Assembly: GCF_964204645.1 (NCBI RefSeq) | Contig: NC_134032.1 | Location: forward strand, 3,744,175 to 3,808,174 | Direction of reading: 5' to 3' | Length of the DNA stretch: 64,000 nt | DNA from: Tubulanus polymorphus | Lineage: Eukaryota; Animalia; Nemertea | Part shown: positions 7,353 to 53,720 of the stretch, in pieces | Layout: each line of letters opens with the position of its first letter | Numbering within the stretch: the first letter of the stretch is position 1 | Position numbers and translations under genes: made by a program | The notes under the pieces: model-generated | Told to the model about the DNA's origin: nothing | Seen by the model: only the letters and a program-made list of their open reading frames with translations | Database searches by the model: none

Positions 7353-7368
7353 TTATATAATTAAAAAA

Positions 7369-7802: not shown

Positions 7803-7821
7803 TTATTTAGAATAAAAATTA

Positions 7822-8244: not shown

Positions 8245-8269
8245 TTATTTAGCAAAAAAAATTATGTAT

Positions 8270-8851: not shown

Positions 8852-8867
8852 TTATATAAGTGAAAAA

Positions 8868-9626: not shown

Positions 9627-9643
9627 TTATTTTACATATTTTC

Positions 9644-9985
9644 TTATTCGAAATCTATTTCATGGTGCCCTTTTTCATTCTTACCTTTATATATGAAATA
9701 GAAATCTCCAGAACATAATTCTTCTAAATCTTCACTTGATAATCTATGAAATCTATCTGGTAAATAAGTTCTGAATTTATATTTATTTCCTTTTAATCCT
9801 TCATATTCTAAATGAATTACTAATTTATCTCCATAGTTATTAGTAACTGTAACAATATTTGTAATTAGATATTTCTTATGGATTGTTAATTCTGTTAACT
9901 TTTTGAATTTATAATCTACAGATTTTACATTTGTTATATCTTTAATTCTATCTAAGAATTCACTGTGTACTTGTTTACTCTCCAT
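9644..9985 (-). CDS. Small beta-rich protein beside PolB, possible OB-fold ssDNA-binding protein
   Basis: 113 aa; KKLTEL...YGDKLVIHL...YLPDRF; function inferred from position and pattern only. Confidence 0.55.
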   Translation of the reverse strand: MESKQVHSEFLDRIKDITNVKSVDYKFKKLTELTIHKKYLITNIVTVTNNYGDKLVIHLEYEGLKGNKYKFRTYLPDRFHRLSSEDLEELCSGDFYFIYKGKNEKGHHEIDFE

Positions 9986-10013
9986 TTATTATACAAATTT
10001 TTATTGAAATTGA

Positions 10014-14040: not shown

Positions 14041-14122
14041 TTTAATACTATATTTTTTATTAAAATTGATTTTAGAAGTTCAATGATTTAAATGTTATTC
14101 ATATATATATGAATATTTTAAG

Positions 14123-14389
14123 AGTAATAGGGGTAATAGGCTTTCGGGTTAAAGGTTGAACGGGCGGGTGAGTAAAAATGAAAAACATAAAAATAATTAC
14201 AATTTCTACTTGAATTAGGAGTGAAACTCATAAAAATGAAAAATAAATTCGAGCGTGTGAGAATTTATTTTTCATTTTTATGAGTTTCGCGAGTAATTCA
14301 AGTAGAAATTGTTATTATTTTTATGTTTTGCATTTTTTACGAGCTCGACCGTTCGACCTTTGATTCGAAAGCCTATTACCCCTATTACT
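14123..14389. repeat. Terminal imperfect palindrome (267-bp hairpin) of element A
   Basis: AGTAATAGGGGTAATAGGCTTTCG...CGAAAGCCTATTACCCCTATTACT; loop GAGCGTGTGA at 14251-14260. Confidence 0.95.
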
Positions 14390-14891: not shown

Positions 14892-15842
14892 ATGGTTTTC
14901 GTCAATGTCACCTTCTTGCAACCAATCGGACGCCCTTACCAATCCTACTTCGCTCTGAAATCGATTGTACACATGTCTGGTCCGAATAGAACAGTGGCGC
15001 TGATCACTTTCCCGATCATGTTCATTCTAGGTACGTTCGGCAACACGGCCAGTTTCCTGGTGATGAGTAGCCGAAGATTCAGGCGATTTTCGTACGCGAA
15101 CTACTTGATGGTTTTGTCCATTGCAGATTTATTACTGACCATCAGTATGTCCGGTATGCCGTTGTGGGAGTACGCGTTGAGAAGAGTGGATTTCTCCAGT
15201 CTCGGACAGTGTTTAGCTTACGAATTCGTATTCAAATTTGCGTTTTCCTGGAGCACGACTCTTATAGTTTTTATTACGGTGGAAAGAGTACTAGTTGTCG
15301 TTTTTCCGTTCACGTCGCGTGTCATATGCACGGTAAAATGTTCTCGCCGCATCATGTTAGTAATGGTTGTTCCAAATTTCCTAGTCGCCAGTCACACGTT
15401 TTTCGGTATGCGTTTTTCCGACAAGCTGAAATGTCACTATTACAGTTTCCGCTTCCATAAACAGATGTACTTTTACCTGAACGTATTTTTATACGTCGGC
15501 CCAAGTGTGCTGCTGATCGTTTGTAATTTGGTAATCATTATTTTCATGCGACGCGGATTAAAAGTCGGGGAGACCGGGCGAAAAACGGCTAAAGCCCGTC
15601 GTACAACCATAATGCTGATAACGGTATCTTCGACCTTCGTGGTTACCACATTGCCAAACACGATCACGTCTTTTCTTCCGATTCCCGAACATACCGTCGA
15701 TTATTTCTATACAATTTTCACGATGGTTACGACGTTGAATTACTCGTTAAATTTCTATATCTATCTATTACTGGGGTCTGAAGTCCGCGTGTTCGTAACG
15801 GAGAAGATTACCTGCAGAACCGACGCGAAAATTGCTCGGTAA
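14892..15842 (+). CDS. Intronless class A GPCR (peptide-receptor/chemoreceptor-like)
   Basis: Seven hydrophobic segments; GTFGN, LSIADL, TVERV, TLPN, NYSLNFYIY; host-like base composition. Confidence 0.9.
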   Translation: MVFVNVTFLQPIGRPYQSYFALKSIVHMSGPNRTVALITFPIMFILGTFGNTASFLVMSSRRFRRFSYANYLMVLSIADLLLTISMSGMPLWEYALRRVDFSSLGQCLAYEFVFKFAFSWSTTLIVFITVERVLVVVFPFTSRVICTVKCSRRIMLVMVVPNFLVASHTFFGMRFSDKLKCHYYSFRFHKQMYFYLNVFLYVGPSVLLIVCNLVIIIFMRRGLKVGETGRKTAKARRTTIMLITVSSTFVVTTLPNTITSFLPIPEHTVDYFYTIFTMVTTLNYSLNFYIYLLLGSEVRVFVTEKITCRTDAKIAR

Positions 15843-15989
15843 AATTGGAGACAAAATTACCCGCCAATTTTACCCAATCATTATCATCCAAGTTCCATTT
15901 TAGTGAAGGGAAAATTCGCAAAATGGATGAAGATTAGTCAATCAATTGTGCTTGAAATCGTTACGCCATCGTCAGAAATTTCATTTGTA

Positions 15990-17015
15990 TCTGAAATATT
16001 GAACGATCGTATGGCACATCCGGGAAGAAATAAGACCTTAGCGTAAATTCGCAGTCGATTCTTCTGGCCTGGTATGTCCGCGGATGTTGATTTCTATGTG
16101 AAATCGTGTACACGTTGTGTGGTGCATAAAAGCTCTACGCCGGGGCAACAGAATCCGCTAGTGTCCATCATAACTTCGCATCCCCCCCCCCCCCCCGGGG
16201 TACTTTGTTCAGATTTTATTTTCACATTAGATCAAAGTAAAGGAGGATTTGAACATGTATTGGTCATGACTGACCACATTACTAAATACGCACTAGCAGT
16301 CCCCACTCGAAATCGGCCCACTCGCACTACAGCTCGGGTTATGTTCGAAACTTTTATTTCAAAGCTTGGAGTCCCTATACGAATCCATCGTGATCAGGCA
16401 GCTAATTTCGAAAGTAATTTGGAAGAGAACTGTGCGACATATTTGGTATTTAGAAGTGGCGTACAACCCCATAACATCCGATATGGGAAATGGGGCTTGC
16501 GAACGGTTTAATTCTACTCTGATCTAGCGGTTAGGCCTATTAGAACCAGTGAAAAATAAACCTGGAAAGACCATATATCGTCAGTTGTATTTCAATACAA
16601 CTGCACACCCCACGATACTATAGGATTTTCACCTTACCACCTCATGTTCGGTCGAGAACCTAGTTTGCCAGTTGATGAGGAATACCAACTACATCAACCA
16701 CAAAAGCAATTTACTGCTACCCTCCAAGAGGAGTTTAACCTCCTATGGGCTCAAGCTAGGGAGAAATTACAAAAATCTGCTAAAACATTCGCGCGGAATT
16801 ACAATTAAACGGTTCGAGGTGTTCGATATCAGAAGGGGACATGGTATTAGTGAGATGTGTTGGGGTAAAGGGTAGAAACAAATTAGGAGATCGCTGGAGG
16901 GAGAACCCTCATCTTGTTGCGTCACAACCAAGCACGAGTATTCCCTATATGTAGTCGAAGATACGGTTACAGGCAAACGGAGAACACTCCATAGAAATCA
17001 GCTTTTGAGTTTGTC
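15990..17015 (+). pseudogene. Ty3/Gypsy LTR-retrotransposon integrase remnant
   Basis: HPGRNKT...RFFWPGM...VKSCTRC (H2C2), LVMTDHITKY, IHRDQAANFES, YNCTPHDTIGFSPY; stops and frameshifts. Confidence 0.88.
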
Positions 17016-17019
17016 TCGT

Positions 17020-17320
17020 TAGGGGCCGTCCATAAAAGACATCCACGCTGTAGGGGGAGGGGGTTAAGATTTGTTTGACTTGTGGAAAAGGGAAGGGGGT
17101 TCCTCTGATATGGATGTCCATCTTGAAAGGGGGGTCACTAGTTTAGTAAAATCACTTAATCCACCAATGACTAGTTACCAGAACTTCAGAAGTTATAGTC
17201 ATAATACCAGGTTAAGGTAAATGTAAATACGTTAATAAAAGTTCAGTTTTTTATGCCGCATCAAACCTTTATCAAGTGTGAAACTTAAGGTCCACTGTCC
17301 ACGAGAAAGGGGGTCAAGCT
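17020..17320. mobile_element. Truncated MITE-like element
   Basis: Starts TTAGGGGCCGTCCATAAAAGAC with G-rich subterminal sequence; the other end is missing at the junction with element B. Confidence 0.4.
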
Positions 17321-17639
17321 GATTGGTCGCTCCACTTCGCTACCGCTCCGCTCCGCGACCAATTGATTTATTTACAATACACAAATTCATATAATCAAAT
17401 ATATTCAAATAATAATAATTATTCTATTATTCAACTGAAATACACACGGTTATGAAAATATATTATAGTTTTAAATTACTTTTAATGTTTTGTTTTTAAT
17501 GAGCTCGACCATTCAACCTTTAACCCGAAAGCCCATTACCCCTATTACTCTTAAAATATTCATATAAATGAATAACATTTAAATTGACAGATTATTCAAT
17601 ATAAAAGTGTAAGCTCTTATAGGATATATATATAAATAG

Positions 17640-18250
17640 TTATTTTATAAATTTATATTCATATGGAAATTGTAGTCTCAGTAATAATTTTGAACCTTTA
17701 TTATTCTTTAATTTATTCATATATTCATCATATAATTCAGTAGGTATAATTTGATTTTCTTCCAATGATTGTTGCATAGATTTTCTATCTTTATTGTAGA
17801 ATAAAACTAGAAATCTTATATTCTCCCTAAAGTCTTTAACAATTGAATTATGTTTTTGATTTAAAACCCATGTTGTTATCCCAAAATGTCTTCCAGAGAA
17901 AGCTAAATAACATAACTCACTTTCTCTAACTTTTGAATCATGTTAATTTGCGCAATCATCTACAATGAATAATGTATTTGATCCTTTATAAGTATCAATT
18001 GCTATTTTTATACAATTATCTAAATTTTCTTTTACTGTTTTAGGGTCTAATATAATAAACTTTTTTATCTTAACTATATATCTATTATATGTTTTATTCA
18101 TTTCACAAGTAGGGCAGAAAATATTATATTATCAAAATGATTCTTATAAATAGTTTCTAACAAGTCTAATATGAAATGTGTTTTACCACAGTTTGTTACA
18201 CCAGTAACTAACATATTATGCGGTTCAAATATAAATAAATCTTTATTCAT
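17640..18250 (-). pseudogene. Packaging ATPase pseudogene
   Basis: Reverse-complement homolog of 1122-1739 with a frameshift near 18120 and a TAA near 17944. Confidence 0.9.
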
Positions 18251-19332
18251 TTATTCTTTTAATTTTACTAGATAAAATCCATTCATTAAATTTATCATCG
18301 TATCCTTTATATTTCACCAAAGAATACTTTTTTCCTTTAAGAGTTTTTGTTTTCAATACTTTTCTATTTTGTATTCTATTTCCTCTGGATTTGGTACAAG
18401 TGATAATTCTTGTTCATAGAAATAACCTAATATTTCTTCACCTTTTAGATCTTCTAATTTATAAACAAATGGTTTAGTTAATATTATCTTTTTAATCTTG
18501 AATATTTCTTCAGTAAAATTTGGAGTATAACCTTTATAAAATGTTTTTCTATATTTAGATATTCTTACGTGTTGTCTTATTTTAAATCTAGGTTCTCGGA
18601 AATCATGTGTAACAAACGCTCCATATAAATTATTCCAAAATATTTCCGAATTATCTTCTTTTTTAGCTTGTATAGGTTTCATATTTATAGAACTATGTTT
18701 AGAATTATTATAACTTTTCACTAAATCATCTAACACATCGATATATTTATATGTTTCATTAGCAGTAAAATATTTCCACATTCTAGTTTTCAATGTTTTA
18801 TTAAATCTTTCTATAATAGATGCTTTTTTATCTGAATGTGTTGAAAAATAATCTACATCGTTATCAGATAATAGTTTTTTGAAATGTTTGTTATAAAATT
18901 CCTTACCTTCATCAAATTGTATCTTATCTGGAATAGCTTCTTTAAATATTGATTTAAAAGCATTTGTTACTTCTATACCAGTTTTATTTTTGATTGGAAT
19001 TGACCATGCGTATCGACTGAATATGTCTATAACATTCAGTATCCAGAAATATCCTTTGTTGTATTCTTCTAAGTTCTTCATGTCAATTAAATCTGCTTGC
19101 CAATGTTGATCGATATATGAAACCATAACTTTTCTTGTTAAATAAGTTTTATCCATTTTCTTGTGTATTTGATATGTTGGTTGATTTTGTAACCATGGTT
19201 TTATTCACTATATTTTATATAACCATTTTTCTTATCAGATTTAATTTTATTCCATAATTCTGAAATACTAGAATGTGATACTTCACTTTCTGGGTTATAA
19301 TATAAATCTCTTAAATATTGTTCTTTTTTCAT
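18243..19332 (-). pseudogene. Polinton integrase pseudogene
   Basis: Near-identical protein to 41-1129 (ORF 18353-19156) with frameshifts near 19205 and 18357. Confidence 0.92.
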
Positions 19333-19338
19333 CTGATT

Positions 19339-19711
19339 TTAATCCATTAATAATAATTTAGATTTAGTTTCAATGGTTTTAGGATTTGACTTATTTTCTG
19401 GTATGATAGGTTTATTATCATTGGAATCATTATTGTTATAATCAGATATATACTTATATTTATATATTACACCAGAGAATATAATAACTGTTACTAATCC
19501 AATTGTAATATATAAGTAATTATTACTTCCAGCATTAGAAGAATTAGATGGATTATTATTTGATTCAATATCAGATAAAGTCTGTGATTCATTTATATCA
19601 GTTAATTTTTTTTTTCTTAGCTTTTTTTAATTCTGAAGATCTTTTACCTAATTCTCTTGCCCATTTAATTTGTTTCTCTGATCTAGCCTTTTTCTTAACG
19701 CCATCACTCAT
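19339..19711 (-). pseudogene. Small basic protein with a TM helix, frameshifted in an A-run
   Basis: MSDGVKKKARSEKQIKWARELGKRS...YITIGLVTVIIFSG...KLLLMD*; its 3' end matches window positions 1-37 of element A. Confidence 0.65.
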
Positions 19712-20302
19712 TTATTTTAGTTAATTTTTGTTCTGATTCATTTTCTATTTCACTGTTTGGTTGTAGAACAGCGTCATCTGTTTCGTCCTTACCTGATTTA
19801 TATTCCATAGGCTTGATGTTCGAAACAGTTATGACACCAGTAGAAATTAATGTCATAACCGATCCTAATTGAAATGAAGCATAACCAACCCATTTTTGTA
19901 ATTCAGTCATAACTAAGTAGTCATTTTTCAAATCACTATATAATTTATTTTCATCATCAATTGGTATTAACTGGTTACATAACATTTGACAATACCATCT
20001 GAAATAGAATCATTTATTCGGGATAATCTTGCCTCTTCATAAATCTTAAAATATTTCATTACTTTATCTGGTTTCATAACATCTAATTCTTGAAAAGTAA
20101 TAGTCTTAGTTAAAAACTCTTTAGTTTTTCCACCGGCAATCAATAGTTCTAGATGATGCTTACAATATAAATAGTATTCATAATCTATATTACAATTAAC
20201 TTGAGCACAATTAGTTACAACTGTATCTTTATTATCACTTATACCCAAATCATCTAATGTCTTTTCAATATCAATACTATTCGTATTAGATTTCTTTGAC
20301 AT
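19704..20302 (-). pseudogene. Polinton hypothetical protein split by a frameshift
   Basis: Overlapping ORFs 19967-20302 and 19704-19985 join near 19985; TAAATG start. Confidence 0.65.
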
Positions 20303-20648
20303 TTATATTAGAGAAATTTATTAAGAAAAATATCATAAGTATTCTTCAAATGATACCAGTATCTCTTTAGATTAATACTAGCTTAGTTAAAGGTAAAGAA
20401 TTTTAGTATTAGTTATTGTTTTTTTAGTATTTTTTATTTGTGATATAAAGTATTCTTTTTTGAAAAGAAAATATTAAAAATATAATAGAATTCACTAGCT
20501 AGTTGAAGTTATTGTTTTTTAATATTTTTTATTTAAAATCTATTATTCTTTAACCACTCATTAAAGACTCAACGTATTGTTCATTATTTGGATCATTGTT
20601 CCAAATTGCAAATTTCTTTGCCTTTGTTAACTGTTCTAAATATAACTG

Positions 20649-21212
20649 TTAATCTAGTTTATTAGATTTAATTATGTTTTCCTTCTTTTCTAAAGGTCTT
20701 AAATTCTTCCAATTCCAAACAAGTTTTTTATTGTATTCATCATTCATGTTAAATTTAGAAATCGGCAACACGTGATCAATATGGCAATAATCCCCATAAT
20801 TATCTATATTCATTTTATCATCGAATTGAAATATAATCCATGATTTGAGAAATTCATCTGTATAACACAATAAATTAGATAGTGTTTCTGAATGTGTTTC
20901 TTTGTTGAATAATTGTGTTAATCTAGATCTTAAGCATTGTTTCGATCTAAAATTAAGATCTGTTTGATATCTTTCTCTCATGTATTCTGCCATATAATAA
21001 TTATAATGTTCTATATTATCTTCTCGGTATTGTTTGGTATATAGTTTAAAACGAGTTTTACAACAATATTGAAAACCATCTTTGCTAATCTTACGCTTAC
21101 TAAATTCTGTTAATGATTTATCTAATTCACATTTAGAACACTTCTTGTAATATATATTTATAACACCAGTGTTATTTGTAATATTTATAGTTTGTGGTTG
21201 TTCTGGTTCCAT
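20649..21212 (-). CDS. HNH endonuclease with N-terminal Cys cluster, of the type common in large DNA viruses
   Basis: KKCSKC...CCK, then HIDHVLP...WKNLRPLEKKENIIKSNK. The frame continues past the stop to about 20551, so the stop may be premature. Confidence 0.8.
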   Translation of the reverse strand: MEPEQPQTINITNNTGVINIYYKKCSKCELDKSLTEFSKRKISKDGFQYCCKTRFKLYTKQYREDNIEHYNYYMAEYMRERYQTDLNFRSKQCLRSRLTQLFNKETHSETLSNLLCYTDEFLKSWIIFQFDDKMNIDNYGDYCHIDHVLPISKFNMNDEYNKKLVWNWKNLRPLEKKENIIKSNKLD

Positions 21213-21329
21213 TTATTATACGTATTTTTTACTAAATTGGTTAATATTTTAGAATCCTCTTCCATTTCTTCGACCAACGTCATCCTTTTTCATTCCTCGC
21301 TGCTTTTGATAAGTTTTTTCGATTCCCTG

Positions 21330-21890
21330 ATATCTAAATAATACCACTGGGCGAAACTGCTCTTATAGGAGCGTTTTTGCTTAATGCGCATGCGTTAATC
21401 ATAATTATATATTCATTCTATAAATTCTGTAAAATAGAAACAACATATGCGTTACATGCGTCACATGCGGCCATTGATGTCCGGTTTTGCTTAATGCACA
21501 TGTGTTAATCATAATAGAAACAACCGACATGAAATATCTAAATAATACCACTGGGCAAACCGCTCTTATAGGAGCGTTTTTACTTAATGCGCATGCGTTA
21601 ATCATAATTATATATTCATTCTGTAAATTCTGTAAAATAGAAACGACCGACATAAAATATCAAAACGTGTTCGCATTAGGCAAAACCGCTCTTATAGGAG
21701 CGTTTTTGCTTAATGCGCATGCGCTAATCCAAATTATATATTCATTCTGTAAAATAGAAACAACTGAACATAGAAAATTCAAACGCATGTGCACTAGGCA
21801 AAACCGCTCTTATAGGAGCGTTTTTGATCAATGCGCATGCGCTAATCCTAATTATATATTCATTCTGAATAGAAACGACCGAACATAAAA
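21330..21890. repeat. Tandem array of about 120-200 bp units
   Basis: Four copies of GCTCTTATAGGAGCGTTTTT...AATGCGCATGCG plus one partial copy. Confidence 0.9.
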
Positions 21891-22429
21891 ATTCACCAAT
21901 CAGATTTACACAATACATTATACAAGTTGTTCGGCCGTTTCTTCCAATACATCATTTGATTTCTATAAATACAATTTATAATTACAAACATTTTTTCAAT
22001 TGCTGGTAAATATTTAACTACATCAACAAATGTTAAACTTAATCATTGGAGTCTTAATGTTTTTGAAATTCTTATATAGTTTCTTCGTCGATCTTTTGGC
22101 GATTCTTGTGTTTCTTGTGCTAATTTCTATTGGTTCGATATCCATTGCTGTTGATTCCTCAGTCAGAAAGAGTATCTTGAGTTTCTCTATCACTTCTTGA
22201 TGCGTATGGCGTTTTATTAATCTAAAAGATATTAGCGGTAACTCTAGCTATCTAAAAGATATACTAAATACACTTAAATATATCTAAAGGTTTCATATTT
22301 ATTAGCCCTAATAACTTACAAAAACAGTACTTACATTTAGATTTTAGAATTGTAAACTATAAACTCCTAATTTCGTTTCGAGAGATAGAATATCCTGAGC
22401 ACAATGTTACAGCGTCTGTTCATTTCCGG

Positions 22430-22570
22430 GGCGATTTCTAGAATGAACACGCCGTTGATTATTACACGTCATCTGGTTCCGGCACACCTTTCTAGAATAT
22501 TCTACATGTTTCTGATTATGACATGTCATCTCTATTCAGAGTTCCAGCACACCTCTCTAGAATTTTCTCT
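22430..22570. promoter_or_regulatory. Cluster of heat-shock-element-like motifs
   Basis: TTCTAGAATATTC (22490-22502, perfect TTCnnGAAnnTTC), TTCTAGAA near 22436, CTCTAGAATTTTC near 22555. Confidence 0.5.
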
Positions 22571-22860
22571 ACACGTTTGCAATAATGATTCATATGTCTC
22601 GGCGTCATAGTAACAGCTGTAACAGCTGTGAATTTATAGATTTATTCAATCGTTCATTACATGAAATGTATATAGGTTCAAATAGAATCATGTTCTAGTA
22701 TAAACAGCTATGAATTATTTCAATCACACTTTACTAACACTTTTAATGTTTAAAATCTAACTCACACAAATATGAATATTGAAATAATGTTGTAATTATA
22801 TACTTTTATATCGAATAATCTGTCAATTTAAATGTTATTCATTTACATGAATATTTTAAG

Positions 22861-23263
22861 AGTAATATGGGTAATGGGCTTTCAGGTTAAAGGTTGAATG
22901 GTCGAGTTCATTAAAAACAAATATTAAAAGTAATTTAAAACTATAATATATTTTCATAACCGTGTGTATTTCAGTTGAATAATAGAATAATTATTATTAT
23001 TTGAATATATTTGATTATATGAATTTGTGTATTGTAAATAAATCAATTGGTCGCGGAGCGGAGCGGTAGCGAAGTGGAGCGACCAATTGATTTAATACAA
23101 TATGCTTTTTAAATTATTGATATCTTAGAATAAATATTTAGTTATAATATAAAATGCGCACGGTTATGAAAATATATTATAGTTTTAAATTACTTTTAAT
23201 GTTTTGTTTTTAATGAGCTCGACCGTTCGACCTTTGGCCTGAAAGCCTATTATCCCTATTACT
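22861..23263. repeat. Terminal imperfect palindrome (403-bp hairpin) of element B
   Basis: AGTAATATGGG...CCCTATTACT; apex stem AAATCAATTGGTCGC/GCGACCAATTGATTT at about 23040-23093. Confidence 0.93.
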
Positions 23264-24617: not shown

Positions 24618-25890
24618 AGGGACATAATATCTTAACCGTGCGTAGAAGAAACCGCAATATCTATTAATTTTGAAATATCTAAGTATCTCTTGAAGCTATA
24701 TTTCCAATTTTCACAGAGGTTAAAGAGGGTAATTTGCAGTTTAAGCCTGCGTTAAAATCTTTTGAATATCTTTCCTGACGACTGATCTGTACCCGCTTGA
24801 GTTTGAGATTACGCGCAAAAGGGGTCTCCCACTGCGCATTGCAATTTCACTGAACATTGAGATTTGCGACAAGAAATCTTTAAATGCAATTTGATTTCTT
24901 CACATTTTCCAAGGGGGATATTTTGAGATGATAAGCCATATCTTGTTTGTTCCGTATTTTGGCGGGGGCAATTCGTTAATCTGGTTTCGGGATCCGGTTT
25001 GTCCTGCTATTGAAGTTTGAACGGCCCAGTTGAGGAATTGTCGTATACAGCCCGTCCAGCCTTGCGCCGATTTTGTGTTCGGTGAAATCAAACGAGTCGA
25101 TGGTGAAACGTGCCAGTCAATTTAAACGCTTAGGACATATTTAACGCATATCGCTCTCTGGTAATCCCTCAATCTGGGATCATACGATGAATTTACTGAA
25201 TCTCAACCTTCTTGCTGGAAAACATCGACTAGAAAACCTTACTGATATAAAATTCCAATATAATATTTAAAGGGGTTCATATCTGTCCCCCATTTGATAT
25301 TCTGTTTTAGGGGGTCAACGTCCAGTTTGGCAACTTTCAGCTGCGCCACATATTCCAAAATATATAAAAACTTAGAATTTTTTTCTAGTGTCCAACCATG
25401 AGTGGTACATTCGGTTGAAACGCAAATTAGGTTCTCAACTAGGCCGCATTTGCAACCAACACGGAAAGTCCCCACTTTAACAAGAAATCCTTTAATTTCC
25501 CAACGCTACAAAACTCAAATTCATCAAAGCACTCAAAGTCCATTTTCAACAATACGAAAATAAAGGTAATATATATAACCATCAGAAGCAATATTAATAA
25601 TTACAAACCAGTATAAAATCTTATTTCTGCGATTTCTTTTCACAAATCTCAATGTTCAGTGAAATTGCGGCGCGCAGTGGGAGACCCCTTTTGCGCGTAA
25701 TCTCAAACTCAAGCGGGTACAGATCAGTCGTCAGTAAAGATATTCAATAGATTTTAACGCAGGCTTAAACTGCAAATAACCCTCTTTAACCTCTGTGAAA
25801 ATTGGAAATACAGCTTTAAGAGATACTTTAATATTTTAAAATTAATAAATATTGCGATTTCTTTTACGCGCGGTTAAGATATGCGGTCCT
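24618..25890. mobile_element. Non-autonomous DNA transposon with about 250-bp TIRs
   Basis: 24627-24878 is the reverse complement of 25631-25882; no coding capacity; TSD not resolved. Confidence 0.8.
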
Positions 25891-34740: not shown

Positions 34741-35065
34741 AGCCGCGATCACACCGAGACGATTTGGCCCGGGCCAAATTGGCACGGATCAGGCTCGGCC
34801 CAAATTTGGCCCGTTTGGCCAGAGAGCGCGTTCGCACGCAAACCATTCACTCGATACTTAGCAATGCTCAAACAAAGCGAAGTAGATCATTTTCAGTGCC
34901 AGTTGCAATTCAAACGCAATCATTTGTCTGGTGCTAAAATTTGTTTCGGGCCCGGTCCGACGTTTTTGGTCGGGCCAAACAGGCTCGAGCCCATTTGACA
35001 CCCGTGTGAACAGTTGTACCGGCACAAATTTGGCCCGGGCCAAAAATGCTCGTGTGATCGCGGCT
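34741..35065. mobile_element. MITE with 3-bp TSD (PIF/Harbinger-like) nested in the LINE
   Basis: TIR AGCCGCGATCACAC/GTGTGATCGCGGCT with AAT on both sides; removing it rejoins EFKDI-IDSLSLNQLV. Confidence 0.8.
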
Positions 35066-35844
35066 AATATCTTTAAATTCGCGGCCGGGATTATCGGTTT
35101 TGTCAGAAGGGCTGAAGGAATTATGTTTAGCATTAAAGTCACCAATTATCAATTGGTTTCAATCAGGTTACTTCTAGTAGTCCCCGTCAGAGTTTTGAGT
35201 TGTACGTGCCGACTGCGCGAGGTTACTAAAGAAAGTCTTACGACTCTCAGGTAACTGAGAAGAGAGCGATATTAGAAACGATAACGGATTTAGAATATTT
35301 ATGATTTATACTGAACCAAATGCAGTCATGCATTGAACCAGGCTTATCTTTGAGTAATGGTCAGTTTACAGAAACGTGGGAATAATCTAATAGACCACAG
35401 TTTGAAGCTGTGTAACATAATATATCGAAGTCAGGCACTGATGCCATTTATATTTGTGTGGAGAATAGTGAAATTTGGTCCAGGGTTAGTTTCAACATCA
35501 CCGCTCAAAAGAATTAGTAAATCACCTGTTTATAAGAAATGCGATATTTGCAAACCCAGGTACAAACAATAACGCCAGGAGACCGATCACAGAATAGTAT
35601 ATCGTCCTTATATTCATAGGATGATTACCAAATCTATGGATGATGGGCAACCAAGATATTACTAGCAACAGGTTGACCAATAACATAATGCCATGGAAGA
35701 AACTCAATATAGATATTACAGCCGCAATGAAAACTAGGCAAGACCCATACATTTTGCACAAGATATATATCATAGAAATCACAATCAGAAAAAAAATAAG
35801 AAACAGAATGGAGACATTATCAGGGAAATTCTAGAATCAAAATG

Positions 35845-36630: not shown

Positions 36631-36684
36631 TTATATTAATTTTATTGGTGTAATCATTGTTTTTAATAAGTAGTATACTATAGC

Positions 36685-36774
36685 AGTAATAGGGAAAGTG
36701 TTGTTTCATACCAAAGGTCGGGTCGAGCACACTCTCCCCAACCTTTGATATGAAACAACACTTTCCCTATTACT
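36685..36774. repeat. 90-bp terminal hairpin of element C (mirror copy at 40989-41078)
   Basis: AGTAATAGGGAAAGTGTTGTTTCATACCAAAGGT...ACCTTTGATATGAAACAACACTTTCCCTATTACT. Confidence 0.95.
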
Positions 36775-37049
36775 TTTCAGTTCTTTCATATTTAAATCAG
36801 TGAATATTTTTATTTAAATGTGTTAAATTCTTGATTTTAACATGAAAAGTAACGACTACTTAAGGAGTTGAAGAAAATATCATCCAAATGTCATATGGAC
36901 GAGTGAGTAAAGTGTGAGTGAAATAATTCATATTTAAATCAGTGAATATTTATATTTATATGTGTTAAATTCTTATTTTCAATATAAAAGTAACGAGTAA
37001 TTAACGAGTTGAGGAAAATATCAATTTTAATAAAAAATTTGATATTAAA

Positions 37050-37283
37050 ATGGAAGCAAATAAGAAGTACTACTGTTCAACATGTAAAATCAATATAGAT
37101 AAATCTAAAAAATCAAGACATAATAAAACTAAATCTCATTTAGAAAATAAATTGAAATTAGAATATAAAGATGATATATTAGAAACTAAATTAGAAGAAT
37201 TAAAGAATGAAAAAGAGATATATAAATGTGATACATGTAATCAATCATTCAGTGAAAATGAGATACCATTAAGAACATTTTAA
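37050..37283 (+). pseudogene. Truncated copy of the PolB N-terminal zinc fingers
   Basis: MEANKKYYCSTC...YKCDTCNQSFS is near-identical to the start of ORF 13156-14040. Confidence 0.85.
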
Positions 37284-37396
37284 GTCCAAAAGTCATATTA
37301 GAAATATGAATAATGAGTTAAATAATATAAAAAGTAACGAGTAATTAAATTAAAGAGTTGAAGAAAATACCAATTTAATAAAATAATGACTAATAA

Positions 37397-37974
37397 ATGA
37401 CTGAACAGATGCTACAATTCAAAGATATCGATTTAAATGAATTAGAAAAATATTTTACAGTTAAAAATTTCATTCCTATTAAAGATTTGATTAAAAGTGC
37501 GCGCCTTCGTTTTCAAGTGAAAAATATTACCGAATTAAAGTTTAAAAATCATTATCTAATAATAGAGTTATCGAATGATAAAAAGATAAAATCTTATACA
37601 ATACAATAATTCCAAAATTGACAACATTTGAAGAAATCGATCAACATTTAATAATTACAGATGAAATGCAATCACTTTTTAATAATGAAAATTCACATAA
37701 AACATGATTTCTACACTTACGTTATTGCCCTTTCAGAGAATGCTATGTAATGTTTTCCAGAGTAGAAGAAAAGAGATTCATCCCCGACATTCAAAATGAA
37801 AAATCATTCAAAGATGTTGGAATTCAATGTAACTTAGACAATAAAATCGAAACACCTAAATATGAACCTAATGAAAAAGCGTTATGTAATTGCGGAAAAT
37901 ATTATACTCGAAGCAATAAATCACACCATCTTAAAACAAAATATCATAACTCAAAAATAATAATTCAACTCTAA
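37397..37974 (+). pseudogene. Broken ORF ending in a CxCG...H...H zinc finger
   Basis: ORFs 37397-37609 and 37750-37974; C-terminal CNCGKYYTRSNKSHHLKTKYH; decayed mirror copy at about 40105-40580. Confidence 0.55.
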
Positions 37975-38018
37975 ATATTCAAAATAATATATTTCAAATT
38001 ACTTTTTTTCTTAAATAA

Positions 38019-38240
38019 ATGGATGGTTTCAGCATTCCAATTGGAAAAAGTGATTTGAAACATTATCTTATAGCAGGAAGGTTAATATTGGCTTCATTAT
38101 ACTTTTACTGTGACATTATTTCAAAAGATCTAATGAATGAAAACATTAAATTGAGTAAAAAGTTAAAGAAGTTAAATGGAAACAATCACAGGAAAAAAAA
38201 CAATAAAAAAGTTAATGATTTAAATGATTTAGAGGATTAA
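38019..38240 (+). CDS. Small orphan protein with a hydrophobic segment (mirror copy 39845-40060, minus strand)
   Basis: TAAATG start; open in both diverged arms, with an in-frame 6-bp indel between them. Confidence 0.65.
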   Translation: MDGFSIPIGKSDLKHYLIAGRLILASLYFYCDIISKDLMNENIKLSKKLKKLNGNNHRKKNNKKVNDLNDLED

Positions 38241-38287
38241 GACAGAATCTTTTAATTTAATTTATTTTATATATTTTAACTATAAAA

Positions 38288-38557
38288 ATGAGTGAAAATA
38301 TATTAAATTTATTACATCTTATTTACAGAAATCAAGAGCGCATTAAGTTAATCATTGTGATTTCAGGTTTATTATCATTCTCAATTTATAGTATAAAGCA
38401 GTTGTTAGAATTCTATGATTCTTGTAAAATTAGATACGCGGAATTAAAAGATAATATCAATTATCTATCAGATAGAATTGATAATAATAAGTCTTGTGAA
38501 ATTTGTAATACAAAATATAAAAATAAAAAGTGTTTAAAAACTCAGGTATATTCATGA
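38288..38557 (+). CDS. Small TM plus coiled-coil orphan protein (mirror copy 39555-39797, minus strand)
   Basis: LIIVISGLLSFSIYSI segment and CEIC motif; mostly open in both arms. Confidence 0.6.
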   Translation: MSENILNLLHLIYRNQERIKLIIVISGLLSFSIYSIKQLLEFYDSCKIRYAELKDNINYLSDRIDNNKSCEICNTKYKNKKCLKTQVYS

Positions 38558-38606
38558 ATTAGATGATAAATTCAAATAAATTTTGATAATTAAAAAGATT
38601 AATTTC

Positions 38607-39353
38607 CTATACATATTGATGGATGAATTGAATGAATTGGATGAATGGATGAATGGATGGATGTAATAATATATATATTTTACTTTTAAACACACGAATT
38701 GGAAGAATAATACGAGTATAAATATAATATTTGTATTCTATATTAAATTTAATATAGTATATTAATATCTTATTAAAATAATATTTAGATATAGTATAAA
38801 TAACTTGGATGAATGGATGAGTATTCCAATTCATCCAATTCATCCACTCATCCATTCATACACAATTCCAAATTCTATAATATTACAAATTATGATTTTA
38901 TTTTTGAAATTTATATTAATATATGATATTGGTAGTATCTCTACGCAGCACTAGAATAATATGAGTGATACTAAGTTAGTTAGTTTATCGTTTTTCTAAT
39001 TGAATTCTAGTCAAATGTAAAGAAATTTGATATTGATAAAAATTATTAAAAAAACATCAGAAAAACAATACATTGAATAAGTTAGTGTTGCTTATTCAAT
39101 TGTATTGGTTTTCTAATGTTTTTTTATTAATTCTTATCAATTGAAATATTATAGAATTTGGAATTGTGTATGAATGGATGAGTGGATGAATTGGAAGACT
39201 CATCCATTGATCCATTCATCCATTCATCCAAGTTATTTATACAATATTTAAATATTATTTTACTAAAATATGAATATATTATGTTAAATTTAATATAGAA
39301 TACAAATATTATATTTGTACTCGTATTATTCTTCCAATTAGTGTGTTTAAAAG

Positions 39354-39423
<70 letters not shown>

Positions 39424-39465
39424 ACACTCATCCATTCATCCAATTCATCCATCAATATGTATAGG
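38607..39465. repeat. Two inverted copies of the GGATGA iteron module flanking the foldback centre; includes (AT)32 at 39356-39419
   Basis: Homologous to 1748-2114, including spacer sequence TATTCTTCCAATT. Confidence 0.88.
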
Positions 39466-41227
39466 AAATTAATCTTTTTAATTATCAAACTTAATTTGAA
39501 TTATGTAATTTATCATCTAATTCATGAATATATCTATGAGTTTTTGAACTCTTTTTATTTTTTTATATTTTTTTTACTACACATTTCACAAGACTTAATA
39601 TTATTAATTCTATCTGATAGATAATTGATATTATCTTTTAATTCCGCGTATCTAATTTTACAAGAATCATAGTATTCTAACAACTGCTTTATACTATAAA
39701 TTGAGAAAGAAAATAAACCTGAAATCACAATGATTAACTTAATGCGCTCTTGATTTCTGTAAATAAGATGTAATAAATTTAATATATTTTCAATCATTTT
39801 TATAGTTAAAATATATAAAATAAATTAAATTAAAATATTCTGTCTTAATACTCCAAATCATTTAAATCATTAACATTTTTATTGTTATTTTTCCTGTGAT
39901 TGTTTCCATTTATCTTCTTTAACTTTTTACTCAATTTAATGTTTTCATATATTAGATCTTTTGAAATATTTTCACAGTAAAAGTATAACGCAGCCAATAT
40001 TAACCCTCCTGCTCTAAGATAATGTTTCAAATTACCAATTGGAATGCTGAAACCATCCATTTATTTAAGAAAAAAAGTAATTTGAAATATATTATTTTAA
40101 ATATTTAGAGTTGAATTATTATTTTTGAGTTATGATATTTTGATTTAAGATGGTGTGATTTACTGCTTCCAGTATAATAATATTTTCCGCAATTACATAA
40201 CGCTTTTTCATTAGGTTCATATTTAGGTGTTTCGATTTTATTGTCTTAGTTACATTGAATTCCAACATCTTTGAATAATTTTTCATTTGGAATGTCAGGG
40301 ATGAATCTCTTTTCTTCTACTCTGAAAAACATTACATAGCATTCTCTGAAAGGGCAAAAGTGATTGCATTTTATCCGTAATTATTAGATGTTGATCTATT
40401 TCTTCAAATGTTGTGAATTTTGGAATTATTATATTGAATAAGATTTTATCTTTATCATTTGATAACTCTATTATTAGAGTTATTATTGATTTTTAAACAT
40501 TATGTCCGTAAAATTTTTCACTTGAAAACGAAGGCGAACAGTTTTAATCAAATCTTTAATAGGAATGAAATTTGTAATTGTAATTGATTTTACATGTTGA
40601 ACAGTAGTACTTCTTATTTGCTACCATTTTGATATCAAATTTTTATTAAAATTGATATTCTCTTCAACTCGTTAATTACTCGTTACTTTCATATTGAAAA
40701 TAAAAATTTAACACATATAAATATAAATATTCACTGATTTAAATATGAATTATTTCACTCACACTTTACTCACTCGACCCTATGACCTTTGGCTGATATT
40801 TTCTTCAACTCGTTAATTACTCCTTACTTTTATGCTAAAATCAAGAATTTAACACATATAAATATAAATATTCGTTGATTTAAATATGAATTATTCACTC
40901 GTTAATTACTCGTTACTGTTTGTCAAAATCAAGAATTTAACACATTTAAATATAAATAGTCACTGATTTAAATATGAAAGTACTGAAAGGTAATATGGAA
41001 AGTGTTGTTTCATATCAAAGGTCGGGGAGAGTGGGCTCGACCCGACCTTTGGTATGAAACAACACTTTCCCTATTACTTATAGCGACGTCACCAGACATA
41101 TTTAGGCAATTTGAGTGATAATGTACACGGTATTTGAGGGTCTGCGACGAATGATTTTTAAAGTTAAATAGCTGTAGTGCAGGTTCTAACAATGAGCCTA
41201 ACATAGTCTTCACATCGCAATCAGTTG

Positions 41228-42130
41228 TTAGAATGCATCTTCCTTTTTTGACTTGATCTTGAATCTTTGACTAGTTACATATTTTCTTGATTGGTTCACG
41301 CTGGGAGGTCTTGTTTGCGGAATAACTTCGTCAATGGCCTTGAATATGTAGTGATTATCACGAAATTTTATCGGAGATTTCGCAACCACGACAAGTCCAT
41401 AGATATCATTATCAACCACGAATTTGAAAATACTCCGGCATATACCGTATTCTTTGTCGTCGTCGAAACCACATAAATCCTCATCATCTATGCCCTTTGC
41501 GCGTTAGGCGTATTGAAACCTCGAATTAATCAATACACTGCGGTCTGCGCGCGCTCTCACAAGGGCACCTTTGATTTCGTGAACCTTTTCAGAACGAATT
41601 GTACGAGCGCCAATCTCACAATTTTTGATCGATTTTATTTTTGATTGGATTAATTCGGTTTCGTGAATTTCAACTAAATCCACTATGTCGGGCGTTAGTG
41701 GGTTGCGAGAAAACTCCGGTCGCTTGATTTCTCCATTCAGCATGAACATATCTCGAACGATTCTCACACGGTTTTGTTCATTGTGTTTTAGCGCTTTGAA
41801 GTCATTGATTTGGGCGGCTGCTCTATCATTCATTTTTAGGGGTAGTTGGTCTCGTACGCAGTAATTCGAACCTTTTAGGTTTTTGCTATGCGTCATAGCT
41901 TCATTTTTCCCGCTGCGCGTTGTGAAGCGGATAACTATTTGGGCACTTACTTCCCGATCCGATACGATGTGCTATGTCTAAAACAGCTTTACTGTTTTCT
42001 GAAGCGAGAGAAACTTTCATTTTCTCAGTTAAAAAAGTTACGGGCCACTTCGGGAGTTTCAGGAACATAGAAGACGAGCAAGTTTTGCCTCAATGATCGA
42101 TACCTGAGCTCGATATTTTCTTGTTTCCCA
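41228..42130 (-). pseudogene. LINE ORF1-like remnant with possible C-terminal IMPACT-like domain
   Basis: RSLRQNLLVFYVPE, LKGSNYCVRDQLP, VRIVRDMFMLNG, then GFDDDKEYGICR...LVVVA; degenerate. Confidence 0.5.
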
Positions 42131-42479
42131 TTGTGTTGAATTTGTATAATATTGCTATCAATTTTCCCACTCGGGGTTCGATTATCTTTTTGGAACCAAT
42201 TACATTGAATTGCAGTACTCAAATATTTCATGTCATTTAGCTAACCAATAGTTCCACTTGTTTCTAAATTTAGCAAAAGGAAATTATATTTTTTTTATAA
42301 GTGATATTCCCCGGGCTACCAGTCAATGGATGCACTGTATTGACGCAAAGAAACATGGTCCAGAAATATATTTAAACTTTATCCTAAAGGCATGAAACAG
42401 ATTTTAAAAATATCAAAACCTAATATGTAAAAGGCTACCCGTATGAAAGTGGTAAGAAAATAAATTCAAAAAGAAAGAA

Positions 42480-44011: not shown

Positions 44012-44962
44012 ATGAATTATACCGAGATGCACTTAGTTGGACGACCTTACAGCGGTTACATCGTTCTAATGGCATTGGTGAACAAGTCTGGCACCTACCG
44101 TACAGTTTCATTGGTCATACTGCTTGTCATGTTCTTGTTAGGAGCGTTTGGAAATTCGGCTACATTCCTGATAATGATAAGTCGCAGATTCCGCAGTTTA
44201 TCTTACGCTAACTACCTGATCGCTTTGTCTATCAGTGATTTAGTGTTCTGTGTCGGTTTTACGCTGATGCCTATTTTACAGTTTGTTCTCTTTAGTCTAA
44301 ATACTGGTCAAATAATCTTGGTAGATTCACTGATCAGTTGTCAAATATACGAATTCTTAATAAATTCGTTGGGCGCCAATAGTGCCTGGTTAATAGTAGC
44401 GATATCTCTAGAACGTGCGGCAGTTGTTCTCTTCCCGTTCACATCTCGTTTGATATGTACACCGAGATTCGCCCGATGCGTCATTGCTTTTATGTCCACA
44501 ATAAATGCATTCGTAATTGGTGTTCATCCAGTAGCAACAATGAAATTTGTTTATCCTTTCGGATGTTACTACAAGTCTTGGGACCAAACCTTACTTTTTA
44601 TGATATGTGTAATATACGTTTTTCTTGTACCGTTAACGTTCATAATAATATCAAATTCAGTCATAATAATTCAGTTATTCAGAGGTTCAAAAATGGTTTC
44701 GTCCGATCAGAAAACTACAAAATCAAAACGTACAACAATAATGCTTCTAACAGTTTCACTCGCATTTGCAATTTTTACACTGCCAAACTCTCTGGTCGTA
44801 CTTTTACCAATTCCACCGGAACATACAGACTTCCTCATAGATATTTCCTCCCAGTTCGAATCATGTAATTATGTCATCAATTTCTACATATACCTTTTGC
44901 TGGGACAAGAAATTCGTGAATATTTCTGTATGAAAATCCGCTGTAGAAATTCATTAAAATAA
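44012..44962 (+). CDS. Intronless class A GPCR, paralog of 14892-15842
   Basis: GAFGN, LSISDL, SLERA, TLPN, NYVINFYIY; shares GRPY and RTTIMLxTVS with the first copy. Confidence 0.9.
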   Translation: MNYTEMHLVGRPYSGYIVLMALVNKSGTYRTVSLVILLVMFLLGAFGNSATFLIMISRRFRSLSYANYLIALSISDLVFCVGFTLMPILQFVLFSLNTGQIILVDSLISCQIYEFLINSLGANSAWLIVAISLERAAVVLFPFTSRLICTPRFARCVIAFMSTINAFVIGVHPVATMKFVYPFGCYYKSWDQTLLFMICVIYVFLVPLTFIIISNSVIIIQLFRGSKMVSSDQKTTKSKRTTIMLLTVSLAFAIFTLPNSLVVLLPIPPEHTDFLIDISSQFESCNYVINFYIYLLLGQEIREYFCMKIRCRNSLK

Positions 44963-50318: not shown

Positions 50319-53300
50319 CACCCCTGTGAAGCTGGCTCCCGGTTCCCGGTCCCTTATTCGGCTCCCGATTCAAAATGCTGTTGCGTAACTATTTGCAGTG
50401 AATTGCAGACGAAACATGAAGCCTTAACGGCCGTTTAAAAAAAATTATACCAATTGCAATTGTAAAATAAAAATGAGATAGAACCTAAGTTAAAATTCTG
50501 GCCATTTCTAAAATGTTATTACTAATTTTTAGTCAGTGCGGAACGTTTGGTTTTCCAACAATAATGAGGGGTGGTAGGTAGTCATGCAATTCAAGTCATC
50601 ATTTATTACACGTTACTTCCGCGTTGTTGAAAATCTCGCGAGTCCTGGACCAAACCCCATTGAACAATGTGATCTGTGTGCTGGCCACAAATGCACACAG
50701 ATCACACTACACTACCCATTACAAACTCCAGTACCCACAGCTTTCATATATCCATCCAAATATTTAGAGTGTCTTTCTTCCTGGGTTTAAGAACGTGTGT
50801 ATTGCTCAGTCGTTTTTCTCGTCACCGAATCGACTTCTTCATCTGTTATTCGCCTCTTTAATCATTTAATCAATAAACCATCGATTGTTCCCGCGCTATA
50901 GGGTATTGATTAGTCAGCACTGAAAGGGTTAACAAGAGAGAAAGTTTCTAACGAAAGTTATCGAATCCCCAAGAAAATAATATCTGCAAGCACATGAAAT
51001 TGTAAGATATAAAATAAACAGACGCTTTCTGCCCGCCGTATAAATCACCCTTCATGCAGGGTAAATCCATTGTCAAAGATGAAAAAACAATCACTTCAAT
51101 ATTCTATTAAACTTAATATTTTCCTATCTATCAAATTCCATAGAAAACATAAAAGAACATTTTTCTCATCCCTAAACCGAAAATAGCTGGAAATGAGAGC
51201 GCACACAAAAATTCTAATCCAATAGTTACCACGGTTGCGTGGTAAAACAAAGAGACCACTAACATTGGCGCAGAGATAAGATGGTTGTTTAGACGTCTCA
51301 ATTGCAAAATGTGAAGCTGGCTACTTATTCGATTCGACTCAATTGCGGACAGCAGGTAAACATAATTACGTAACTATGTCTGCTGAAATGAGTGCAACCT
51401 TGACCTCGGCCACCAGGCTAATCGAGACGTCTAAAATTAACACCACGCGTGTGACGATTTCCTCCCGATTCAAAATTATTTTGAATCGGGAGCCGAACCA
51501 GTAGCCGCTTCCCGGTTCCCGGTTCAAAACCATTTTGAATCGGGAGCCGAACCGGGAACCGGGAACCGGTAGCCGGCTACTGGTTCGGCTCCCGATTCAA
51601 AATGTGAAGCTGGCTACTTATTCGATTCGACTCTATTGCGGACAGCAGGTAAACATAATTACGTAACTATGTCTGCTGAAATGAGTGCAACCTGACCTCG
51701 GCCACCAGGCTAATAGAGACGTCTGAATTAAAAACACGCGTGTGACTTCAATATACACAGTTACTAGGCAACTATATTCTATACTATAAGCGGCTAAGCA
51801 ATAGCGTATTAACTTTGTAGCGTGTAATATCCGTTCGTGTGGCTTCGATTAAGCGTTGAGTGGTATGGATTAAAAGAGGATGGTCTGATCTGTGTTTATG
51901 AATAGATTTCGTGCCGATACGATAAAGTTTAGGTAGACTTTTCTACCATTAAGTTTGGACTTTCCGCGTGACGTCACTGCGCGCGATGATGAAAACAAAC
52001 ATTTGCGCGATGTGAGCGTCAGCTGTTGCTCGATGACCACAGAGGCGTCGGTGACCTAATTTCATTTTGTCTGCCTACAGAGACGCGGATGACGTCAATT
52101 CTGGGGAATGTAATAGTGGAGAATACTGCAATGTGAGCATCATCGGTCTGATACGAGAAAGATGTACTGCATGAGTTGTTATATGTTGCTAGTTCTTCTG
52201 CCCTGGGCCCGGTTTAGGTGATAATTCTAATGGAAAATGCTTAATTCGGGTTAGTTAATTGGTTTACCTTTGTCAGCGATATGAAGTTGGCTATTGAAAT
52301 GTGTATTGAAATATTGTCAACATATTTGAAAATCATTTTCAATCGGGAGCCGAATCGGGAACCGGTAGCCGGCTCCCGGTTCCCGGCTCCCAATTCAAAA
52401 TGTGAAGCTGGCTACTTATTCGATTCGACTCTATTGCGGACAGGTACATGTTATGATTGCGTAACTATGGTGTCCGCTCTCAAGTGCTAGCCGCAACCTT
52501 GACCACCAGTCGAGACGAGGCCAATCGAGACGTCTAAACACATCGCGCAACCAGGTGTGCTGACCGCGAGCGTTGCCCGGAGCGTTGACATGCACTTTGA
52601 CTCAGTAACTCATAATATCTTCTTTCATTCATTGAAGGTTTTGTGAAATAAGCGAAATCCTCGGAAATTTCTTTCCTTTTAAAGGCCGAGGAGTATGGAT
52701 GCTAGTTAACCGGGTGGCAAACACTTGAAATGGGGCGTCCCACTTTTACAGTATCTTGTTTAAGCGAGGTTGGCTCGCAACAGAAAAGCAGGTCACACAC
52801 AGTTAAATTTGACAAATTCATAAAAGTTTTCATAACAAGTTCTAAACTAATTTTAAATAATCTAGTCATAGTGGGAATGAAAATCTGATGCTAGCGATCT
52901 TTTTTTGTAGAGATAGGGCCAAGATTAAAGATTTTAGAGACATTTCAAATTTTTTGAAAATCATTATTTTTTATCCAATTTCGATGAAATTTGGACCCCT
53001 GTGAAGCTGGCTCCCGGCTCCCGGTTCCCGGTTCCCGATTCAAAATGCTTTTGAATCGGGAGCAGAACGGGGAACAGGGAGCCGGCTACTGCTTCGGCTA
53101 CCGATTCAGGTTTTGAATCGGGAGCCGAATCGGGAACCGGGAACTGGGAGCCGGCTACTGGTTCGGCTCCCGATTCAAAAATGTGGAGCTGGCTACTTAT
53201 TCGCCAGGTGGCGCTGGTATACACTATGCCAGACATTTCACGTAACTACGTAAATGTCTACTCTGCTGATAAACAATGTCGACCTCGACCTTGACAACAA

Positions 53301-53720
53301 ATCACCAGGTGATGGCGCGAGCCAACCCAGACGTCTAAACACGATTGCGTATGCGACCGCGAGAGCGGTCAGCTGTATGTAGCTTTTATACGTCAGTAAG
53401 CTGCGTCTATTAATAACATAACTTGGTTTAAGAACGTGTGTATTGCTCGGTCGTTTTTCTCGTCACCGAATCGACTTCTTCATATGTTATTCGCCTCTTT
53501 AATCAATTAACCATCGATTGTTCCCGAGCCCTTAACAACAGAGAAAGTTTCTAACGAAAGTTATCGAATCCCCTCACCAAGAAATCAATATCTGCAAGCC
53601 CATGAAATTGAAAGATATAAAATAAACAGATGCTTTCTGCCCGCCTATGTATAAAATTCCATAGAAAAGAACATTTTTCTCATCCCTAAACCGAAAATGG
53701 CCGGAAATGAGAGCGCACAT
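50319..53720. repeat. Composite repeat region (GAATCGGGAGCC/GGGAACC palindromic arrays and duplicated blocks)
   Basis: CCCTGTGAAGCTGGCTCCCGG at about 50321 and 52997; 51305-51450 resembles 51600-51745; 50785-51205 resembles 53425-53720. Confidence 0.75.

Follow-up and report, generated by a model that had tools for sequence, protein, structure and literature searches.

A palindromic 4.4-kb Polinton derivative in the genome of Tubulanus polymorphus and its probable fold-back origin

The genome of the nemertean Tubulanus polymorphus contains, within a stretch of 64,000 nt (NCBI RefSeq assembly GCF_964204645.1, contig NC_134032.1, positions 3,744,175 to 3,808,174; hereafter the window), a 4.4-kb palindrome with the termini of a Polinton, here named element C. 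Polinton A and element B lie in the same window, and L004, a relative of A, comes from a metagenome. Positions are those of the window unless another sequence is named, and the features are collected in Table 1.

Structure and gene content of element C

The 10-nt end AGTAATAGGG is found at both ends of C; it is common to A and B, and the end of L004 is related to it. According to PMC8097293 Polintons are marked by 6-bp duplications of the target site (TSDs) and by (AG)3 or (AGT)2 ends, and ends of the AGT...ACT type are given there and in PMC4196379. The C end starts with AGT, but its (AGT)2 is imperfect. On both sides C is flanked by TATAGC, a 6-mer whose chance recurrence, estimated from the flank composition, is about 3e-4. 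When the halves are folded at the central apex they show 1716 matches and 103 mismatches (94.3% identity), with an alignment coverage of 91.5% for the right half and 75.9% for the left; a plain arm-to-arm alignment has 1684 matches and 110 mismatches (93.9%). Between the arms there are 11 gaps of at least 5 nt, and the stretches found on the left only include pieces of 361, 144 and 47 bp. The inverted arms, Polinton termini and clean 6-bp TSD described in a first-pass annotation of this DNA are thus borne out, with arms about 94% alike and TATAGC on both sides.

The palindrome is real. It is hardly credible that it arose as a long-read fold-back or an assembly artefact: the arms differ at the 103 sites and by gaps as long as 361 bp, the flanks show no mirror symmetry (their local score is 25.0, against 24.2 in shuffled sequence), and the TSD is a direct repeat. 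The arm indels and the TSD had been held against an artefact before, and we agree.

At the centre lies a hairpin whose stability (z -9.7 to -11.8) is matched by none of 200 shuffles on either strand. The right arm continues straight into it with no unique DNA between, and on the left 144 unpaired bp intervene. The 260-bp unique centre proposed earlier must therefore be given up: it consists of these 144 bp and the 110-bp hairpin, which continues the right arm. Since 361 and 47 bp are missing from the right arm at other places, the 144-bp gap is most simply read as one more loss from this arm, and with that loss allowed C would be a palindrome to within 9 nt. The 55 nt at 38886-38940 are similar, in antisense, to the 3' end of A's ATPase gene, with a score that 0 of 500 shuffles reach. 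Positions 38936-39085 were considered as a further part of this ATPase tail and rejected, as 246 of 300 shuffles score as well.

From the end inward each arm is ordered as a 90-nt hairpin, AT-rich units, the start of a protein-primed PolB (pPolB) gene, the open reading frames (ORFs) X, Y and Z, and a GGATGA module. The terminal hairpins have z values of -14.9 and -13.3 (0 of 200 shuffles), and a 30-nt piece of the subterminal units is 93% identical to B 22709-22738. It had been claimed that C retains the terminal hairpin; this holds in so far as its hairpins are homologous to those of A and B, but the sequence itself is not shared, being 90 nt against 267 and 403 nt and without a BLASTN match. 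Positions 37017-37316 are 88% identical in DNA to A 14073-13778, and the PolB match in C is limited to residues 1-93 of the 1363-aa PolB of L004. The PolB upstream motif with a zinc-finger start noted in the first-pass annotation is present, but the zinc finger is the N-terminus of the polymerase gene itself. The GGATGA module, rightly said to be kept, is 87% like A 1897-2073. It is single in A (1744-2141, between the converging ATPase and 355-aa genes), while C has two inverted ones. Read from the PolB end, the left arm of C has the same order as A as far as the module and, beyond it, 55 nt of the ATPase gene's 3' end. In A the module is itself quasi-palindromic, with arms at 1730-1804 and 2058-2132, and is perhaps a two-way terminator.

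C was also described as having no integrase, Pol core or capsid gene, and this is confirmed with the proteins of A and B and, for the integrase, also with Pfam searches of 10 ORF pieces of C. Out of 20 proteins of A and B tested, the N-terminal piece of pPolB alone matches C. A's integrase gives no match in C, and neither an rve domain nor a superfamily 1 (SF1) helicase was found by Pfam in the 10 pieces; no ORF in C exceeds 116 codons. For the capsid and packaging ATPase genes there is no protein-level match, just the 55-nt ATPase tail at the DNA level.

The two arms are more closely related to each other than either is to A. Among 245 columns aligned three ways, 213 are the same in all; at 21 the left and right arms agree and differ from A, against 6 where the left arm agrees with A and 3 where the right arm does (2 are all different), which makes the arms sisters relative to A. 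The terminal repeat that A and B have in common at their ends reaches no further than A 14086, and the integrase-side end of B has no PolB match; C has PolB-start sequence at both ends. By the identities of its PolB start (88%) and module (87%) to A, the internal sequence of C is traced to a Polinton related to A.

Between 37390 and 38560 there are four ATG-initiated ORFs of at least 70 aa, against a mean of 0.03 in shuffled sequence (0 of 300 shuffles reach four). As reported earlier for the small ORFs of C, X, Y and Z have no match in A or B. Their starts have the AT-rich ...AA-ATG context of the genes of A, B and L004, unlike one of two host G protein-coupled receptor (GPCR) starts, so they are probably Polinton accessory genes. 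Y and Z are open in both arms. X is broken in each of them, at different places, and so was probably still intact at the time of the duplication.

X, Y and Z have no firm homologue. Searches gave 0 matches for Z, 0 for Y, and 0 for the 3' piece of X against longer proteins. With its stop read as X, ORF X has 15 matches (E 9e-7 to 9e-4). The zinc-finger motif is at the centre of most of them, and 10 of the 15, when looked up, are unnamed or called hypothetical protein. The best Atlas scores, 0.77 for Z (below the Atlas lead level) and 0.82 for Y, are leads only. Among zinc-finger proteins, some of them in Nucleocytoviricota clusters, there are weak look-alikes of X and Z. A match of Z in the viral contig L005 (36% over 33 aa, weak and seeded) was treated as chance. 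In viral contigs neither Y nor the ATPase has a match, exact look-up of 10 window proteins in a protein collection gave 0 of 10, and an Rfam search gave 0 matches.

Table 1. Features of element C, Polinton A, element B and L004. The L004 hairpin is numbered in its own sequence.
Feature	Position	Strand	Description
Element C, whole	36685-41078		4.4-kb palindrome; Polinton ends, 5'-AGTAATAGGG at 36685 and CCCTATTACT-3' at 41078
Left TSD	36679-36684	+	sequence TATAGC
Left terminal hairpin	36685-36774		90 nt, 38-bp stem; starts AGTAATAGGG as in A and B
AT-rich subterminal repeat units	36775-37030	+	about 100-140 nt each
pPolB start with N-terminal zinc-finger part	37017-37316	+	ATG 37050; broken near 37257-37261; truncated
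ORF X	37397-37974	+	about 190 codons in three pieces; C-terminal CxC...HxxxxxH zinc-finger-like motif; broken near 37580 and 37705
ORF Y	38019-38240	+	73 aa, open
ORF Z	38288-38557	+	89 aa; hydrophobic stretch and CxxC
GGATGA repeat module	38590-38885	+	
Unpaired piece	38888-39031		144 bp, left only
Central hairpin	39032-39141		110 bp; symmetry apex of 9 nt at 39082-39090
GGATGA module, mirror	39141-39490	-	(TA)n expansion at 39354-39421
ORF Z, mirror	39555-39797	-	80 aa; 3' end differs by indels
ORF Y, mirror	39845-40060	-	71 aa, open
ORF X, mirror	40105-40583	-	5' part missing; broken near 40483, 40357 and 40246
PolB start, mirror	40583-40659	-	shorter; cut by the 361-bp gap
Subterminal units, mirror	40650-40988	-	87 bases more
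Right terminal hairpin	40989-41078		86/90 identical to the left one
Right TSD	41079-41084	+	sequence TATAGC
Polinton A	1-14389		rve integrase, A32 ATPase, weak Capsid_N match, PF03175 pPolB
Terminal hairpin of A	14123-14389		
Element B	17322-23263	-	integrase and ATPase half, with an HNH-like ORF, between two terminal-repeat copies; no PolB
Terminal hairpin of B	22861-23263		
Terminal hairpin of L004	190-446		

Terminal hairpins and divergence of the arms

The terminal hairpins of A, B, C and L004 measure 267, 403, 90 and 257 nt. When their stems are written on the strand that ends 3', the transition-type mismatches are almost all G-T and not A-C: 7:0 in A, 13:1 in B, 2:0 at the left end of C and 6:0 in L004, in total 28:1. 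This total is counted without the right end of C (2:0, a copy) and without a hairpin of the viral contig L003 (3:1, not shown to be an end). Other stem mismatches number 8, 14, 0 and 8, respectively. As a control, the long arms of C have a ratio of 19:21. The binomial P for the bias is 1e-7, which is overstated, since the families share some positions. The folding energy favours the 3' strand in A, in B and at the left end of C, barely at the right end of C, and not in L004 (-69.5 against -69.4). Together, the hairpins suggest that a released strand folds back at its 3' end and forms a local duplex end. Strand-biased deamination could also be a source of the G-T pairs, but the strand exposed by displacement, and likewise by inward transcription, would be the one that ends 5', which is the wrong one.

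A search with A's PolB gave three distant loci. In L003 a 184-nt hairpin with AGTAGT motifs (4657-4840 of that contig) stands upstream of a distant Polinton-type PolB. Exact-match scans for the C end pattern gave 0 matches in viral contigs and 0 in metagenome sequence, and the GGATGA module pattern gave 0 in viral contigs.

Over 225 codons of X, Y and Z the arms differ by 25 non-synonymous and 5 synonymous changes, and the ratio of the two per site (pN/pS, by simple site counts uncorrected for AT bias) is 1.1. Under neutrality 5.4 synonymous changes are expected, and at a ratio of 0.25 five or fewer would have a P of 0.0006. Constraint is seen in the controls, with a pN/pS of 0.15 for the integrase of A against B and 0.24 for the PolB start of C against A. 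The value between the arms indicates that they diverged as a chromosomal fossil, and on these counts the copy of C seen here is decaying neutrally.

Further, the arms have diverged to a like degree throughout (p=0.31 over six 300-column bins), with 86/90 identical at the terminal hairpin and 46/50 in the innermost part. Ends and interior are accordingly of one age, and the duplication took place no later than the insertion. The terminal repeats of B are 97.6% alike (282/289) against about 94% for the arms of C, so C is probably an older insertion than B.

Origin of the palindrome

We consider it probable, at roughly 0.7, that C is a fold-back (snap-back) derivative of a Polinton which was copied and inserted by the polymerase and integrase of a helper. 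A fold-back origin and insertion by a Polinton-type integrase had both been put forward in the first-pass annotation, and they gain support from the 9-nt apex, the polymerase-side sequence at both ends, the sister arms and the clean TSD. C is self-complementary over almost its whole length with one end duplicated, as a snap-back genome would be. As it has polymerase-side sequence at both ends together with a module that lies mid-genome in A, a fold-back is favoured over two ordinary terminal repeats.

In the scheme that we propose, a relative of Polinton A would have been deleted for most of the stretch that separates the polymerase start from the genes beside the module. During extrachromosomal strand-displacement copying, the nascent strand would then have reversed direction just beyond the module and served as its own template as far as the end. 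A displaced strand of the palindrome could anneal to itself, forming a half-length hairpin duplex with an intact end that a helper pPolB could copy; copying round the apex would restore the dimer, and no gene of C's own would be needed. Finally, a helper's rve integrase would insert the double-stranded form into the chromosome and so create the 6-bp TSD.

Several observations weigh against such an origin. A single copy of C is seen, with no second one within the 64-kb window, and no intact helper lies in the window, the pPolB of A being split and B having none. The direct parent of C is not among the sequences compared: A differs from C by 12-13%, and X, Y and Z have no match in A, B or L004. 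For about 90 bp to the left of the central hairpin no match was found. Further, over 30 nt the subterminal units of C are like the subterminal DNA on B's integrase side, and L004 has an extra gene between its hairpin and PolB, which indicates that end modules are shuffled and that a polymerase-side end is a less strict notion than used above.

Alternatively, C could be an internal deletion of a Polinton subfamily with terminal inverted repeats (TIRs) of about 2.3 kb, the central hairpin being a separate local feature. In favour of this are the lability of gene order among A, B and L004, the TIRs of 100-1000 bp given in PMC4196379, and the 144-bp unpaired piece, which could be the remnant of a unique interior. 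However, the repeat would then have to hold both the PolB start and the module, which in A has a mid-genome position, neither is contained in B's TIR (about 290 bp inside the loop), and the right arm meets the hairpin without unique DNA; we regard this as unlikely. It is improbable, too, that a two-ended element was inserted first and that host repair later swapped one half for an inverted copy of the other. No viral replication step would be needed for this, chromosomal inverted repeats do recombine, and inversions linked to Polinton TIRs are known (PMC11414722), but a greater age would then be expected for the outermost 90 nt than for the interior, contrary to the even divergence, and two template switches would be needed with the TSD kept intact.

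The earlier comparison with transpovirons, and the hierarchy of helper virus, Polinton and satellite built on it, fare worse. C is small, linear, bounded by TIRs and without capsid genes, and the weak zinc-finger look-alikes of X and Z, some in Nucleocytoviricota clusters, would agree with a transpoviron-type element in a giant virus system of three tiers. The comparison fails on gene content, however: no SF1 helicase is matched in the 10 ORF pieces, nor is there a fusion with an inactivated polymerase in C. The Atlas score of 0.77 is below lead level, all traceable parts are from the neighbouring Polinton family, the window shows no giant-virus DNA, and nothing in the data shows a virus above the Polinton. 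Such a three-tier system is very improbable.

If C is a fold-back derivative, a one-off defective genome and membership of a family are about equally likely. It is possible, although we lean against it, that C is a self-propagating snap-back satellite of an animal Polinton, with X, Y and Z of its own, with arms kept identical while it was free, and with a 3'-strand terminal hairpin, marked by family-conserved G-T pairs, that serves as duplex origin for a helper pPolB and as integrase substrate. Should C turn out to be multi-copy, defective-interfering or satellite forms would exist among animal Polintons as they do among true viruses.

Fixed in a chromosome, a fold-back derivative would be a fossil of a Polinton replication intermediate, and the current model of this replication, which has a single-stranded racket intermediate (PMC4196379), is built from sequences. 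With a near parent present in this window, the turning point can be placed just beyond the meeting point of the converging genes, at which B ends too, and the G-T bias of the terminal hairpins names the strand that would fold.

Neighbouring elements and known systems

In A the pPolB is split into two frames near 13162-13166 (ORFs 14040-13156 and 13232-10014). L004, which is 82% like A over 4.1 kb, has a single 1363-aa PolB ORF that starts with the zinc-finger region, so the two ORFs of A are one split gene. Positions 571-5833 of L004 are ordered as hairpin, a homologue of A 9644-9985, PolB and a homologue of the HNH-like ORF of B, and a similar AT-rich motif stands upstream of each of its genes. 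The integrase and ATPase of B are about 92% like those of A. In B a terminal-repeat copy is joined about 30 bp past the ATPase stop, which is the gene junction near the fold-back of C; its left end stops at the hairpin loop with no TSD seen, and four 100-nt direct repeats lie upstream of the HNH-like ORF (21321-21890). C and A have a GC content of 23% and B one of 27%, against 38% outside the elements.

C has minus-strand LINE-like (long interspersed nuclear element) remnants on either side (34934-35158 and 41085-42240) and may have landed in old LINE DNA. The endonuclease match at 34937-35158 is weak (E 0.00095); that C interrupts a LINE endonuclease frame is unproven, the flank 41085-41270 being without a Pfam match. 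Elsewhere in the window there are two single-exon ORFs for rhodopsin-type GPCRs of 316 aa (14892-15842 and 44012-44962), the first of which starts 500 bp from the end of A. A decayed rve integrase fragment of host-like GC, probably of a long terminal repeat retrotransposon, adjoins the cut left end of B (15950-17300). Further, a 1.27-kb element resembling a miniature inverted-repeat transposable element has inverted arms of 259 bp that are 92% alike (24620-25889), and clustered GC-rich direct and inverted repeats with GGGAGCCG/GGAACC units (51305-53655) are probably another repeat family.

Among the titles and abstracts covered, none was found on whole-element palindromic Polintons; the founding Polinton paper and Repbase Reports were outside that scope. 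In the text available from PMC11414722 the string "palindrom" is absent, as are palindrome, hairpin and non-autonomous from that of PMC8097293, and the available part of the anole survey reports no non-autonomous Polinton copies (PMC3014272). Polintons are described as 15-25 kb in size (PMC6431247), and an Alpha and Beta class scheme is given for adintovirus-type elements in PMC8502044.

C resembles the animal Polinton/Maverick (adintovirus-type) elements in its AGT...ACT-type ends, 6-bp TSD and inverted ends, and its traceable parts are 87-88% like A; it differs in its 4.4-kb size, in having no core gene and in being one palindrome throughout. It fails to show the genes of an autonomous Polinton and has the marks of a non-autonomous one, namely inverted Polinton termini, a 6-bp TSD and a Polinton-derived interior. 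Non-autonomous Polintons are listed in Repbase. Like C, non-autonomous or truncated Polintons are helper-dependent or remnants, and those of C. elegans are also from the pPolB end (PMC11414722); the descriptions there are of remnants or TIRs, with none of a palindrome that spans the element and has a TSD. Tlr1, which retains a helicase, is now regarded as a Polinton-like virus (PLV; PMC5499653). Transpovirons are, like C, small linear DNAs with TIRs and without structural genes, but according to PMC5499653 they are about 7 kb, have an SF1 helicase gene and are carried by mimiviruses, none of which is seen for C.

The snapback genomes of adeno-associated virus (AAV; PMC8235507), which are defective interfering particles, are similar in form and have the build proposed above for C: they are self-complementary, contain one end's promoter and a partial replication gene, and occur in symmetric and asymmetric forms. 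AAV is a single-stranded parvovirus driven by Rep, whereas C is a fixed chromosomal element with ends of the integrase type; C works like these genomes and is not a member of their group. In 1985 Kikuchi and colleagues reportedly found that a protein-primed linear plasmid of yeast yields a perfect hairpin and a palindromic dimer, which would have the same build. This plasmid is cytoplasmic and is not known to have an integrase or a TSD. In Halocafeteria virophages and PLV subtype 4, palindromes within the TIR beside the TSD are proposed to prime replication by folding (bioRxiv 10.64898/2026.07.28.741278). As given in that source, those elements are mostly non-pPolB, while the hairpins described here belong to pPolB Polintons (A and L004) and have a strand-specific G-T bias.

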